From a virus (Duplodnaviria; Heunggongvirae; Uroviricota; Caudoviricetes), in the IMG/VR virus record IMGVR_UViG_2651869695_000008: a stretch of DNA of 45,692 nt; one strand, 5' to 3'. Position numbers: made by a program. This document shows, piece after piece, positions 21,501 to 27,500 of this stretch. Numbering within the stretch: the first letter of the stretch is position 1; every line of letters begins with the position of its first letter.

Positions 21501-24500
21501 GGATATCAGTTAAGTTATCCCGTGCAGGGTATAAGTCATTATCAAGCCCACCCGTAGATAGGCTTTGTAATGACATCTTCAATTAATCAGCAGTTCAGGC
21601 TGTGTCACCTGCAAAATGTATTCATGCTCGACAGCCAGGACACGCTTCTCTCTCTTCCGTTCGTTCATTAACCGACTGCCGATCGTACCTTTCAGCTTTG
21701 AGCGTGTTTCTTTGATGGCGTAGCGGTGCTGCATTTCTTCGCCAATTGCCATGCGGCGGCTCAGTTGCTCTGCCATCCAGTTGAATGCTGCGATATAGCT
21801 CTCCTTGATTGCCGCAGCAGCTTTCCCGGTGAACCCCATCACAACCATGATCCAGCCATCTTTCGTCAGGCTGTACATCGGGCGAACCTTGCCCTGCTCA
21901 TCGATATAATCAGCCGACGCAAAATTGCGTTGGCTAAACTCACGCGAGCAATCAGCCTTAACCTGCTCGATTTTCCTGAGAACATCACCGTGTCGCTTGC
22001 CGAAGTACTTGGCAATTTTTCTGGATGTGGTAACGACCTCTCCGTTTTTGGCTTGCACCATTTCTCGGAAGTCGAAGGCTGGAATAACTGAATGATTATT
22101 CATAGCGTCTTTACCTTTTAGAAAGTGAGCCTGTCTCACAGAAAAGCCGCCCGAGAGAGGTCGCCACCTATAACGGCATTTCTCAGGCTCGCTTACTGAA
22201 AGGCTCTCGTTAATATGCGCGTGAGATGCGCGTTTACTGCGGACATAAAAAAGCCCCGCATCGCGAGGCTCATTAAATTGACTTTGTGATTTGCAAAAAA
22301 ATTATTTCAGGCATTGCGTCCTGATGTACTCCTGAAGCGTTCTCAGTGCTGTTTGGTCACGGATAATTCCGTCCCGGATACCGAGAACGTTTCGTCCAGC
22401 AACTGGAGAGAGTTCGACGGTGGCATCATTGCCCATGCCGGAGGCGCTGGAGGTTTCGGCTGAGGATGGCACAGAGCATTTTCCTTTGACGAGCACCCGA
22501 CCACCATTATCAAGCTTGCGCCGAAGAGCATCATTTTCAGCTTTCGCATCAGCCAACTCCTTCGTGTATTTAGCATCGAGTACATCAGCAGCACGCTGGC
22601 GTTGCTGCATGTCAGTAATGGTGGCGGTCGCCTGCTTCAGCTCACTGACTTTTTTATCACGCTGCTCTTTGTAGGCGATGGCGTTATCACGGTAATGATT
22701 AACAGCCCATGACAGGCAGAGGATGATGCAAATAACCAGAGCGGAGATAATCGCGGTTACCCTGCTCATTGCTGCCCCCACAAACAGACTTCACGCTCAA
22801 TATCACGACGGGTCATCAGCCCTTTCCATTGCTTACCGCCAGCGTATGTCCAGCGACGTAGCTGGTCACATGCGCCTTTGATATCACCCTGGTTTATTTT
22901 GCGAAGAAGCGTCGATGTTCTGAAATTACCAGCGCCCACGTTGTAAACGAACGAGTAAAGAGCGCCGCGCGTTGTTTCCGGTATATCGACTTTGATGTAC
23001 GGGTTAATTTGTCTGGCGACCATGGCAAGGTCTTTATTCAGGAGGGCTTTGCATTCTGCTTCGGTATACGTTTTACCGGGAATGATGTCTTTTCCGGTGT
23101 GTCCGTGACATACAGTCCATACGCCAACGATATCTTCGTATGGTATGTAGCTGACACCTTCCAGGCCATCGTCACCACTCGGACCAGTGATGAGCACAGA
23201 CGCTATGGCAACAGCCCCACCACCAATAGCAGCAGCAACAGCCTTGCGTAATGATGGCGACATTATTCACCTCTCGCAGCCTTACGCTTATCTTCTTTAA
23301 TCTTGAAATAAAGGTTTGTCAGATACGTCAGCAAGCCAAACACCAGGCTACCCAATACGCCTATTGCCACCCACTGGGATGGGGAGACTTTGTCCAGCAA
23401 CTGCAGTAGCCAGTATCCCGTCCCCACCGCTGACGTGGTGTATGACACACCTGTTGTGATTTTTTCCATCTGGTACATACCCCGTCTCCCGTTATCCGGA
23501 AGCTGACAACAATAAAAAGCCACCAGTTAATTCCTGATGGCCCTGATGCATAAACGTCATAATACCTGACTGTTATGATTGACAATAATGATAATGTTTA
23601 TATAGAAAGGTTCCCGATGTGTGTTACATATCATTTCTCCACGGGGAATATCCCCACGCCAGCGCAGACTCTTTTACCCGTTCTCTTCTGCGCTGGCTCT
23701 TTTTTATTATGCTGCTGCATTTACCTCTGGCACCAGGCTTTCTATCTCAACACAATACGTGGTACTTCTTGTAACCAATATCATAACGATTAATCGACAT
23801 AGAATTTCTCCCGTGTACAGGAACAGAGTTAAAAAGCCGGAACCGGAATCAAATCACAGGATGACCATCTGCCAGTGGCAGGTCATAAAAAAAAGGCCGC
23901 GCCATGCGCAGCCAGAACTCACAAGGAAAATGATAGAAGGAAATAACATTAGTGATGTACGCATGGCGCCTCCCGCTAAGTTCTGCAATGATCAAACAGA
24001 ACTCGCTACGTGCCCTTAAAACTCGATCATTTAGCCCCTCCAAGGAGGATTCACCATGCGGTTGGTTTTTTAATAAACAGTAAACAAAAAAGTCAAGAAT
24101 TATTCATTCTGTTCTTTCATCATCGGCCACAGCAATACCACAATGCCGCAGACCAGAGCGCCATCAGTCAGTACCAACATTATCCTGCTGGTGAAATCCA
24201 TCATCACCATCACTAAAAGCAGGATCACAACAGCAAGCAGACACAGTTTATAAAACAATGTTCAGAAAACGCATTCAGCATGCCTAAGGTTCTATTCCTA
24301 CGAATAGCCAACTTGCAACTTAAAATATTATTTATGCAGCCAATTAAATTCTGGTCCTTACAATATCAACCTGAAGATTCTTATCTTGTGCTGATTGATA
24401 AATGACAAACCTTTTACTACCTGCATTGAAAGAAGTAGACAAAACCAGACAATTATCATAACGAGCAAGAACATAATACCAACCATCATTATAATTAATC

Positions 24501-27500
24501 ATTTCATATTCTTTCTTAAACTGCGGTTTGTAATATCCTGTCAGAAATGAAAAAAGCCAGAAATATGCCACAAAAGCAATCATCACAATCTCAAAAAAAT
24601 GTTTTTTTATAAATGGCTTATCATAGAAGCATGATACCGATAAAAATCGCCCATAAGATCTTATCGAAATTGTAACCGCCAGCGCAATCGCTGCTGACAG
24701 TAGCAAAAGAGGTACCTGAATCTTCTGTCTCAATATAGAAAACTCAATAATTGCCGGCACAAACAATAATTCCACAGCAAAATAAAGGCGAAATACATTT
24801 AGCTCTTGCATAGAATGTTTTCTTTTCACTGCGAAAAAGAATACAACACCAATACCCCAACCGATAAGAAATATAGCAATGACGATAACTGCAAAAAATA
24901 AACTTCTGGCAACATCATCAACACCTGCACCTACAATCCACCATGGGAAGCCGTAGTAAAAAGAAGTACCCCATCCATAGAAATAAGCACTCCCCCATCC
25001 AAGGCATCCCATGTAGGCAATAAAAAGTGAAGAACTCCTGAGCAGCGCACCATCCTTCATAACCACCCCAATACAAGATGATAACATTGGCTTACAACTC
25101 ATAACAAAAGCAATTCAATGCAGTCAAGAGGTTACAGGCTAAAAAAACTCTATTACATTGCAGTCAGCATGTTTACTACACAAATACAATTCAGAGCATA
25201 AAAACTACTCGGCGGCAGGTTATTGAGACTCATCAATGACATGTAAAAAACGCCCATTATTGGTGTCAAGTTTCCCCAAAGTTATTCAAAAAGTCAATAT
25301 TATGCCGTTAATATGTTGCCATCCGTGGCAATCATGGCGCTAACGTGTGATCGCATTCAAAATGTTGTCTGCGATTGACTCTTCCTTGTGGCATTGCACA
25401 ACCAGAGCGTCATACAGCGGCTTAACAGTGCGTGACCAGGTGGGTTGGGTAAGGTTTGGGATTAGCATCGTTACAGCGCGATATGCGGCGCTTGCTGGCA
25501 TCCTTGAATAGCCGACGCCTTTGCATCTTACGCACTCTTTCTCAGCAACTATCCCCCACTGCTCTGTTTTGGCTATATCAACCGCACGGCCTGTACCGTG
25601 GCAATCTCTGCATCTTGCGCCCGGCGTAGCGGCACTACGGCAATAATCCGCATAAGCGAATGTTGCGAGCACTTGCAGTACCTTTGCCTTAGTATTTCCT
25701 TCAAGCTTTGCCACGCCACGGTATTTCCCCGATACCTTGTGTGCAAATTGCATCAGATAGTTGATAGCCTTTTGTTTGTCGTTCTGGCTGAGTTCGTGCT
25801 TACCGCAGAATGCAGCCATTCCGAATCCGGCTTGTGATTGCGCCATCCCCATAGCAGCCATCACATCAGTACCGGAAAGAGAGTCAGAAGCCGTAGCCCG
25901 TGGTGAGTCGCTCATCATCGGGCTTTTTGGCGAATGAAATTTAGCTACGCTTTCGAGTCTCATGCGCCTTCTCCCTGTACCTGAATCAATGTGAGATTTC
26001 CGCAGAACACTGCGCCGGTATCGATATACATCTGGTTGGCAAATTTGAGTGGTTTCACTGCTTGCGTATGACCAAAGATGAACGTGTCCGCGCCTTTGAT
26101 TTCTTTCACGATCCCGTCTTGTGAGTTGCTGATTCGTTCGCGGTTCCAGATTACCTGCTGATGATCAACTGGCTTTCCAAACTCGTATTTATCACAAGGA
26201 TAATCGGCGTGGCAGATGACATATTTTTTTCCTTTACTCACCAGTTCGATGATTAACGGAAGTTCATCTGCTTTATGGGCAAGAGCTTTAGCCAGAATTT
26301 CTTTGTCGTAATCGAGATTAAAGAACCAGCCACCGCCATTAAGCAGCCAGTGATTGACGTTTCCACGCTCTGATAAGCCATCAATCATCATTTGCTCATG
26401 GTTTCCACGTACAGCTCTGAACCAGGGGAATGTGATTAATTCCAGGCATTCTACGTTCTCTGTACCGCGATCAACCAAATCGCCCACCGAGATAAGCAGG
26501 TCTTTTTTGGTGTCGAATCCTATCGTCTCCAGTTTTTTCATCAGGTTCGTGTAGCATCCGTGCAGATCGCCAACTACCCAAATATTTCGGTATTTGCTGC
26601 CATCAATTCTTTCGTAGATATTCATGCAACCTCACTTCTGCTGTTTCGCAGTTTTTTAAGTTTCTGTTGATACTCCGCCTTGATGGCCCTGCACTCTTCG
26701 ACAGTCCAGCGATAGCGGTTATGGTTTGATTCGATTTCCTCTACTGCTACCTGCCCGATGCGGCTAATCAGTTCGACGCGATACGGAACGAGATTTCCGC
26801 TTTTGTGCTGGTTGCACACCACGCATTGCTTGTGAATATTGCGTTCATCAAATCGGAGTTGAGGTGCCGCAGCAGTTGTCCGGTAATGTCCGGCATCCCA
26901 CTGAGCAGACGTGAGCGTTCCGCACGAGATACATGGTAAGTCGCGGTCTCTTTCTCTGATGAAGGCGTTTACGGCTTGTTGGGCTTGTTTAATCCAGTAA
27001 CTGCGGGGCTTTAAGGCGAGTTTTCGAATCTTAAGTTTATCTTTCTGTTTCTGCTCCTCTCGTCGTCGTTTCTTCTCTGCTGCTTTTTCCGCTTTTTCGC
27101 GTTCTTTACTTCGTCGTTCGAGTGCTATCTTGGTTCCACAAATCTCATTACACCAATATTGATTTTGATATTTTGGTATAAACCATTCATTGCAACATTT
27201 ACATTTCCTTCGATAGATTCGCATAAGTGCTCCTTTCGTTGCCGGAAAAATCACCGTAATACTTATCTCGGGCTTCTTCAGCAACTAGTACCGCTAACTC
27301 CAGATCATCAAAGCATCCGAAGTGTTTACTCTTGCCATGGAATCCTAGCCTAACATTCCATTTTTTCTGTCGTTTGTGCCAAGTAACCCCTCTGCAACCT
27401 GATTTGCTATTCTTTCGGATCCTTATATTTCTTGAATTTTCTATTGGCAGGCATTCTCTTAAATTTTCTGGCCTATTGTCGGTCCTAATTCCATTAACGT

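Follow-up and report, generated by a model that had tools for sequence, protein, structure and literature searches.

The IMG/VR virus record IMGVR_UViG_2651869695_000008 (45,692 nucleotides, the whole stretch analysed and hereafter called the window) is a lambdoid prophage that carries a gene for a multi-pass membrane protein in the interval separating the late antiterminator gene Q from the lysis genes, which raises the question as to what such a gene does there, i.e., whether it belongs to the lysis functions of the phage or is cargo of the lysogen, and when it is transcribed. The late genes of this prophage, including the one considered here, lie on the minus strand. From the sequence alone, the original prediction viewed the gene as a moron lying downstream of the late promoter PR', in the slot where toxin genes sit in Shiga toxin (Stx) phages, and expected its expression to be coupled to induction; homology to a routine phage lysis accessory protein was named as what would speak against it. 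On analysis, the observation was partly confirmed and the interpretation partly supported. It can be stated with high confidence that the locus holds a real gene of the STM1630/TfpB family, which the PR' slot carries as cargo, which the phage can do without and which has no relation to toxins or lysis proteins. The gene is already known, as it is present in the classical phage 434, belongs to a named family and occupies an insertion site found in the literature.

An STM1630/TfpB-family gene in the PR' slot

Counted from the start at 25102, the long minus-strand open reading frame (ORF) spans positions 24344-25102. The run without a stop extends over 256 codons, far more than chance would produce, since 2000 shuffled versions of the local 1 kb gave 178 codons at most, and its coding strand is composed of 39% T and 24% A. 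The atypical AT-rich composition ascribed to it holds, with a G+C content of 36.4% (31% at third codon positions) compared to 48.0% in the window and 51% in Q and the lysis genes, and the ORF falls in the lowest 6% of 717-bp windows. The membrane-protein ORF expected after PR' is real, but its product is most likely 238 amino acids (aa) long and not 252. Full-length homologues are nearly all of 236-238 aa and, in alignments, their first methionine corresponds to position 25060, where the Shine-Dalgarno sequence GGGGTGG precedes the methionine codon; because homologues begin there, behind this motif, the start at 25060 is preferred to the RefSeq start at 25087, which gives 247 aa.

At the protein level, the product is 100% identical to CPT_434_68 of phage 434, annotated as a "putative membrane protein," and 98% identical to that of phage 2B8, while the DNA is 99.9% identical to ECs_0816 ("membrane protein") in prophage Sp3 of Escherichia coli O157:H7 Sakai. 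The gene is present in 692 of 5,426 complete E. coli genomes (~13%), with at least 99% identity in 679 of them, and carriers include O157, O55:H7, O26, O103, O111, O145 and the enteropathogenic E. coli (EPEC) O127:H6. Genomes with a family member hold a median of two copies, and divergent E. coli paralogues are 40-68% identical. Respective to the family, the cluster representative identical to the ORF and all 103 matches bear the precomputed label PF27470 (TfpB), and the product name given by the Prokaryotic Genome Annotation Pipeline (PGAP) is "STM1630 family protein" at loci 99.6-99.9% identical in DNA to the window gene; membership was established via these precomputed labels and PGAP names, the local copies of Pfam and NCBIfam being without a matching model. 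As such, the ORF matched nothing in the local Pfam, NCBIfam and PADLOC libraries and, in PHROGs, only families without known function. Neither a toxin domain (Pfam scan) nor similarity to holins, antiholins, spanins or lysis families (Pfam and PHROG) was found. The Salmonella homologue P0075 (46% identity over 94% of the query length, E = 1.3e-70) can be equated with STM1630 because it adjoins sseJ, is 717 bp long and has an N-terminal motif, NSSMLLAYLGGLGWG, encoded by the published knock-out primer.

The family is a small one. An exhaustive profile search of 1.84 billion proteins retrieved only 74 cluster representatives, with distant full-length relatives in Pasteurellaceae, Neisseria and other Enterobacteriaceae, and a profile scan of the genome collection with the close alignment gave six loci only. 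Alignments, the AlphaFold2 model and hydropathy display the architecture of the family in the window protein, namely ~238 aa, an N-terminal aromatic and glycine-rich motif, and a multi-pass core followed by a small beta domain at the C-terminus; both the full length and the motifs are kept from E. coli to Yersinia at 39-68% identity. A literature search on PF27470, ECs0816, or tfpB together with Moraxella provided nothing useful, and papers on "TfpB" were discarded as a source on function because they concern an unrelated pilus ATPase.

Turning to the position of the gene, the window Q shares 202 of 207 residues (98%) with lambda Q and, on alignment to lambda, the window DNA is near-identical from the 3' end of Q to about position +10 of the transcript and unrelated beyond. 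The PR'-like element claimed at 25266-25300 proved to be a lambda-type PR' directly after the Q gene, with a -35 element TTGACT (25297-25292), a -10 element GAAACT (25274-25269) and, at the position of the lambda pause element, a -10-like AATAAT followed by GGG (~25260-25252). Because the match is near base-for-base from the 3' end of Q through the promoter, it is homology and not a chance hit to a consensus. In phage 434, the order of genes is a Q82-like Q, a terminator, the gene considered here, tciB, a small ORF, a terminator, nanS-p and the holin gene; in phage 933W, it is Q, PR', terminators, tRNA genes, stx2AB, nanS-p and the holin gene. Between 933W, 434 and the window, homology extends to the terminator that precedes nanS-p. 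In Stx-phage-like prophages, a 68%-identical paralogue lies downstream of Q, a methylase gene and two tRNA genes and upstream of lpxR, pmrD, nanS-p, DUF1378, DUF826 and the holin gene. A moron insertion site downstream of PR' has already been described, with Sp3 among those listed (Tree et al., 2014, PMC4104026). Synteny with stx2AB of 933W, the Stx-like paralogue and this description all agree with the view that the gene occupies the toxin-gene slot of Stx phages.

Two features of a moron are also found here. Lambda has the same Q and PR' with other DNA downstream, whereas 933W and 434 share flanks around different cargo, and the base composition is atypical, as given above. The terminator scan revealed none directly after the ORF, the first strong one standing after tciB and belonging to the small RNA (sRNA) and nanS-p backbone shared with 933W. 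With the prophage-toxin class, i.e., Stx and heat-labile toxin (LT) of the LT-II type, only the genomic position is shared.

Elsewhere, members of the family are found as lone copies in most diverse surroundings. On plasmids of enterotoxigenic E. coli (ETEC), a 59%-identical member is divergent from eltAB, ~870 bp from eltA and with the heat-stable toxin gene STb nearby, and this eltAB-adjacent member has entries in over 1,200 blocks of the assembly collection, which suggests that a gene of the family came along with the toxin locus. Other lone copies lie beside genes for EtpBA-type secretion, an AraC regulator and STb, beside iroBC and bor, or on plasmid-like contigs rich in insertion sequences. 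A Yersinia prophage has a member after Q, the Salmonella copy is located between sseJ and frm genes, the Citrobacter rodentium copy beside lpxR at an equivalent site, and the Haemophilus ducreyi copy between rpoH and mqo. Outside 434-type cassettes, DNA homology is restricted to the ORF and at most ~80 nt upstream. Because lone copies stand in such unrelated settings with homology so limited, the gene works alone, without an obligatory partner and untied to lysis genes. Given this autonomy, the outcome of a routine lysis accessory protein is excluded; relatives occur far from lysis cassettes and most of the divergent copies are away from lysis genes. Neither is the gene required by the phage, as lambda has unrelated DNA downstream of the same Q and PR'. 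As a separate observation, lpxR, coding for a lipid A deacylase, and sometimes pmrD are found within 1-2 kb of members in 434, Sakai Sp3, C. rodentium and other loci, although the surroundings differ in other respects.

Transcription signals of the cargo gene

Homology of the window to the 434/Sp3 cassette begins at 25221, just upstream of what corresponds to the promoter-proximal terminator. In 434 and Sp3, this terminator is intact (ACCCGCU-GCCG-AGUGGGU), with a stem of 7-9 bp, a run of U7-8 and a fold that scores z = -4.85 at -12.5 kcal/mol. The window copy has lost two pairs of the stem, has another one compensated (C-G to U-A) and retains only U5, and its fold of -3.5 kcal/mol is within the range of shuffled sequences. 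Between PR' and the ORF, the scan for terminators gave no credible candidate, and a strong one is first encountered 1.35 kb downstream, at 23913-23886; an AU-rich hairpin followed by U7 (25190-25140) was rejected as terminator, being no better than shuffled sequence. One E. albertii copy of the proximal terminator is intermediate, and the element differs between Q lineages.

In lambda, PR' is a constitutive promoter. Because the proximal terminator is decayed and PR' is constitutive, this prophage may transcribe the gene from PR' in the absence of Q, unless Rho acts on the untranslated leader. In addition, a TTGAC-N18-(TG)nTAT block accompanies the gene, with its spacing from the start codon unchanged, in five contexts that have nothing else in common, among them an ETEC plasmid, a Stx-like prophage, the C. 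rodentium chromosome and an iro island, with unrelated DNA further upstream; in the window, this block (25127-25098) is a plausible candidate for an extended -10 promoter travelling with the gene. A second promoter-like site, 25107-25078, was rejected because its use would remove the Shine-Dalgarno sequence. Once the prophage is induced, the late transcript modified by Q can reach S, R and Rz only by way of the gene, and a rise of the mRNA of the gene is then to be expected.

The expectation that expression is coupled to induction is, as such, partly upheld: the architecture argues for a rise on induction, but pure coupling is at odds with the decayed terminator, the travelling promoter-like block and the promoter that STM1630 has of its own. 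Expression in the lysogen as well as after induction is considered fairly probable, and the prophage variant of the window may express the gene without induction. Indirect hints at expression from a repressed prophage are the STM1630 data and an unverified array mapping for strain EDL933.

The predicted membrane protein and its possible role

With distant relatives added to the alignment, AlphaFold2 modelled the protein with a predicted local distance difference test (pLDDT) of 80.5 and a predicted template modelling score (pTM) of 0.73, compared to a pLDDT of 58 with 20 close homologues only. Predicted helices cover residues 10-36, 47-78, 89-111, 116-136 and 155-181, followed by a five-strand beta domain (184-235), and four of the five helices are strongly hydrophobic by hydropathy. 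Helix 1 is aromatic and glycine-rich and corresponds to the most conserved part of the family. Across the family, loops 2 and 4 have about three Lys and Arg residues each and loop 1 has none, which would favour a topology with the N-terminus inside, loops 2 and 4 cytoplasmic, and loop 1 as well as the C-terminal domain periplasmic; conservation is concentrated on what would then probably be the periplasmic face.

What has been reported about the family comes from Salmonella. STM1630 is described as having no known function, as being absent from S. Typhi and bound by H-NS, and as having its own mapped promoter, with expression in macrophages and in medium inducing Salmonella pathogenicity island 2 (SPI-2) in strain 4/74, while in S. 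Typhimurium ST313 it is silenced by two single-nucleotide polymorphisms (SNPs) in the promoter (PMC6785131, S1 Text). In calves and chicks, signature-tagged mutants showed attenuation, and deletion of STM1630 increased intramacrophage replication of 4/74 (PMC6785131, S1 Text). A conserved membrane protein recurs beside the main toxins and effectors of enteric pathogens, and the one homologue studied has animal-colonisation phenotypes.

The reading we lean towards, at somewhat better than even chances, is that of a lysogenic-conversion moron, i.e., an inner-membrane cargo protein of the STM1630/TfpB family in the PR' slot, expressed by the lysogen and acting on the envelope. A single autonomous gene for an inner-membrane protein, with five membrane helices and a C-terminal beta domain of ~55 residues, would thereby follow the Q-dependent late promoter and precede the lysis genes; mobile and AT-rich, it would recur beside virulence loci of enteric and mucosal pathogens, phage lysis and growth having no need of it. 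In the lysogen, it would be expressed from the promoter travelling with the gene and here probably also by PR' read-through via the decayed terminator, and expression would be stronger after induction owing to the Q-modified late transcript. The product, neither a toxin nor a lysis protein, would act on the envelope to the advantage of a lysogen inside an animal, in keeping with reports on the Salmonella homologue. This last part, i.e., envelope action from the inner membrane with a benefit to the lysogen in an animal host, is put at slightly less than an even chance. The identity and family of the gene, its slot and its autonomy, the lost terminator hairpin and the sRNAs downstream are established, and the pattern of transcription, the topology and the physiological role are inferred.

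Several points weigh against this reading. On the side of transcription, the -10 element of PR' differs from TAAATT of lambda at two of six positions by direct reading of the sequence, so that the window PR' may be of other strength; Rho-dependent termination in the 200-nt untranslated leader could block read-through from PR'; the candidate promoter has a weak -10 element without the conserved T at -7; and the promoter of Salmonella STM1630 is not homologous to the candidate block. On the side of the protein, the segment right after helix 5 is rich in Lys and Arg (3.4 in 15 residues), which renders the topology ambiguous. Against solved structures or viral predicted structures, no resemblance was found beyond generic helical bundles and small SH3-like barrels, and a profile search against PDB sequences gave no match. 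There is no biochemical function recorded for any member of the family, and the phenotypes in Salmonella were obtained with a homologue of 46% identity, in part by transposon screens.

A membrane protein with a protective role is the alternative that comes to mind in the first place, acting either in superinfection exclusion or against phages otherwise, or as an orphan immunity protein against membrane-targeting bacteriocins or contact-dependent toxins. Expressed in the lysogen, it would act at the inner membrane and prevent DNA from entering or pores from forming. In being encoded by a prophage moron, spanning the inner membrane several times and having a small domain outside of it, the protein indeed resembles exclusion proteins as generally known, and its occurrence as a lone, autonomous gene on diverse mobile elements and islets, with paralogues as divergent as those of E. 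coli and a median of two copies per carrier genome, would suit such a role; likewise, the family is limited to mucosal Enterobacteriaceae, Pasteurellaceae and Neisseria, rich in such toxins, and the adjacent gene carries the label TciB-like "resistance to colicin." Nonetheless, the N-terminal and periplasmic motifs are highly conserved instead of diversified as usual for immunity proteins, a partner toxin gene adjoins the gene in none of the contexts examined, and the Salmonella copy is fixed between effector genes, expressed under SPI-2 conditions and associated with host-colonisation phenotypes. The PADLOC scan of the ORF matched no defence-system model, which lowers the case for membership in such a system and not that for an exclusion-like function. 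On balance, protection is deemed unlikely. A late function, strictly dependent on Q, by which the protein would tune lysis timing, progeny release or the release of a co-resident toxin, in line with the induction-coupled view of the original prediction, is improbable. Its position inside the late unit, upstream of S, R and Rz, would entail co-transcription after induction, stx2AB is expressed in a Q-dependent manner from the same position, and in other elements the family is linked to genes for the toxins LT and STb; yet, many copies have no Q or lysis gene nearby, late operons of the same kind run without the gene in lambda and 933W, similarity to holins, antiholins and spanins is lacking, and STM1630 is expressed from its own promoter outside any phage.

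That the gene is a decaying and functionless hitchhiker, kept only because the insertion site tolerates it, has very little probability. Decay does surround it, as seen with the deleted esterase gene, the lost terminator and a small ORF frameshifted relative to 434; some database copies are frameshifted or truncated, and ST313 has inactivated the promoter of its copy. Conversely, the 679 genomes mentioned have an intact ORF with no less than 99% identity, length and motifs persist from E. coli to Yersinia at the identities given above, relatives of the same architecture exist in Pasteurellaceae and Neisseria, and the alignment contains enough co-variation to lift the pLDDT of AlphaFold2 models from 58 to 80. 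A bolder version of the lysogenic-conversion reading takes the family as an unrecognised mobile envelope factor of toxin and effector loci, aiding colonisation or the delivery of toxins or vesicles, with terminator loss in this lambda-Q lineage of prophages of enterohaemorrhagic E. coli (EHEC) and EPEC perhaps having turned an induction-coupled cargo into one constitutively transcribed from PR'; the loci accompanied by the family comprise the Stx slot, eltAB, STb, EtpBA, sseJ/steB and lpxR. As a whole, this version is held to be rather unlikely.

Downstream small RNAs, other features and related systems

Between the ORF and the holin gene S, the original prediction had seen ~820 bp of AT-rich non-coding DNA, which was contradicted, since this DNA has a G+C content of 42% and includes a tciB-like gene, two sRNAs and the remnants of nanS-p (Table 1). 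The gene equivalent to the tciB-like one in phage 434 is annotated as TciB. The region ECs0816-ECs0818 was reported as the top Hfq-bound intergenic region of E. coli O157, and EcOnc13 as ~187 nt long on northern blot (Tree et al., PMC4104026, Table S2 for the latter). The Hfq peak of EcOnc13, obtained by cross-linking and analysis of cDNA (CRAC; Sakai 901332-901382), matches window positions 23953-23903 exactly. The STnc100 model RF02076 of Rfam matches at full length (23884-24089) with 37.5 bits (E = 4.3e-6), short of the gathering score of 47, and the terminator hairpin has -14 to -16 kcal/mol and is followed by U8. PasD is described as structurally related to STnc100 and as lying next to Q and lpxR, with pasD directly upstream of the esterase gene in phage 2B8 (2026 Pas-sRNA preprint). 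Phage 2B8 carries the same cassette as the window and, because of its position and relationship to STnc100, the RNA is probably PasD. On the opposite strand, the peak of EcOnc32 (Sakai 901574-901662, minus strand, ~112 nt) exactly matches window positions 23623-23711, a region with a plus-strand terminator (23659-23705, -16.4 kcal/mol) and, further upstream, a plus-strand promoter-like site (23566-23595); the match of its 3' half to Esr41 is weak (32 bits, E = 0.001). Considering the heavy Hfq binding in the near-identical Sakai Sp3 copy, annotation of the slot should include the sRNAs.

As for nanS-p, a gene present in 434, 933W and many prophages, the first 25 nt and the last ~70 nt remain: homology to 434 runs to esterase codon 9 and resumes at the last ~70 bases, ~1.75 kb of 434 DNA being missing. 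Two annotated ORFs of this region were not retained. The 132-aa "hypothetical protein" of RefSeq (23621-24019, plus strand) is probably spurious, as it overlaps both sRNAs and has no family match, and the "small membrane protein" of 62-64 aa annotated in 434 is unlikely to be a gene, as it overlaps an sRNA and is frameshifted in the window.

Table 1. Features of the late region and other annotated elements, with window coordinates
Feature	Coordinates	Strand	Details
STM1630/TfpB-family inner-membrane protein gene	24344-25060	-	238 aa; alternative upstream starts 25087, 25102
Candidate cargo promoter	25098-25127	-	TTGACT 25127-25122, 18-nt spacer, TGtTATGAG 25106-25098
Decayed promoter-proximal terminator (tR' equivalent of 434/Sp3 cassette)	25185-25207	-	Comparison and folding
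PR', Q-binding region and sigma-dependent pause element	25251-25297	-	Lambda homology
Late antiterminator Q, lambda type	25340-25963	-	207 aa; Pfam PF03589, E = 3.8e-57
tciB-like DUF3927 small membrane protein gene	24100-24258	-	52 aa; RefSeq DUF3927; PHROG 1470 "TciB-like," E = 2.5e-17
STnc100-like sRNA, EcOnc13, probably PasD	23884-24089	-	Same sense as late transcription; terminator 23913-23886
nanS-p (SASA-family sialate esterase) stumps	23704-23800	-	Deletion junction 23776/23775
Antisense Hfq-bound sRNA EcOnc32	~23600-23707	+	Convergent with EcOnc13; 3' part Esr41-like
Holin S, class II (phage 21-type), first lysis gene	23263-23478	-	Pfam PF04971, RefSeq
Lysozyme R	22766-23263	-	Pfam PF00959, RefSeq
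Rz	22302-22781	-	Pfam PF03245, RefSeq
isrC, Hfq-binding sRNA	965-1087	-	Full-score Rfam match, 135 bits
Lambda cIII thermoregulator	38662-38720	+	Full-score Rfam match, 88 bits

Away from the late region, the window contains a second large piece of cargo, an ORF of 590 aa (28346-30118, plus strand, 35% G+C) on the opposite strand inside the nin region, for which Pfam, NCBIfam, PADLOC and PDB gave no match and PHROGs only a family of unknown function. About 320 bp upstream of this AT-rich ORF, a perfect hexanucleotide repeat, (AAATAG) x 11.8 (27959-28029), might serve as a slipped-strand switch.

Among the classical morons of lambdoid phages (on morons, Juhala et al., 2000, as cited in PMC4104026), those expressed in lysogens include bor and lom of lambda, gp15 of HK97 and sieA of P22. 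Like these, the window gene is an extra gene of atypical composition for an envelope protein, located between conserved phage genes and plausibly provided with its own promoter; unlike them, it sits upstream of the lysis genes and not in tail or immunity regions, and it has no homology to any of the four. With 933W, the likeness is in the layout, as stx2AB, too, is flanked on one side by the terminators close to PR' and on the other by the conserved terminator that precedes nanS-p and the holin gene, with convergent Hfq-bound sRNAs downstream of the cargo, whereas the window gene codes for an integral membrane protein without relation in sequence or fold to AB5 toxins and is not accompanied by tRNA genes. 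The closest relatives remain 434 and Sp3, where the gene is likewise followed by tciB, the sRNA region and the holin gene; in these phages, though, the cassette follows a Q82-like antiterminator with an intact terminator, in contrast to the lambda-type Q and PR' and the decayed terminator of the window, while the nanS-p esterase gene is kept in 434 but deleted in both the window and Sp3. Finally, STM1630, located between steB and sseJ, resembles the window gene in its 238 aa, N-terminal motif, AT-richness and 46% identity, but it is chromosomal, outside of any prophage, H-NS-bound and transcribed from its own non-homologous promoter with a long leader, whereas the window gene is borne by a prophage.

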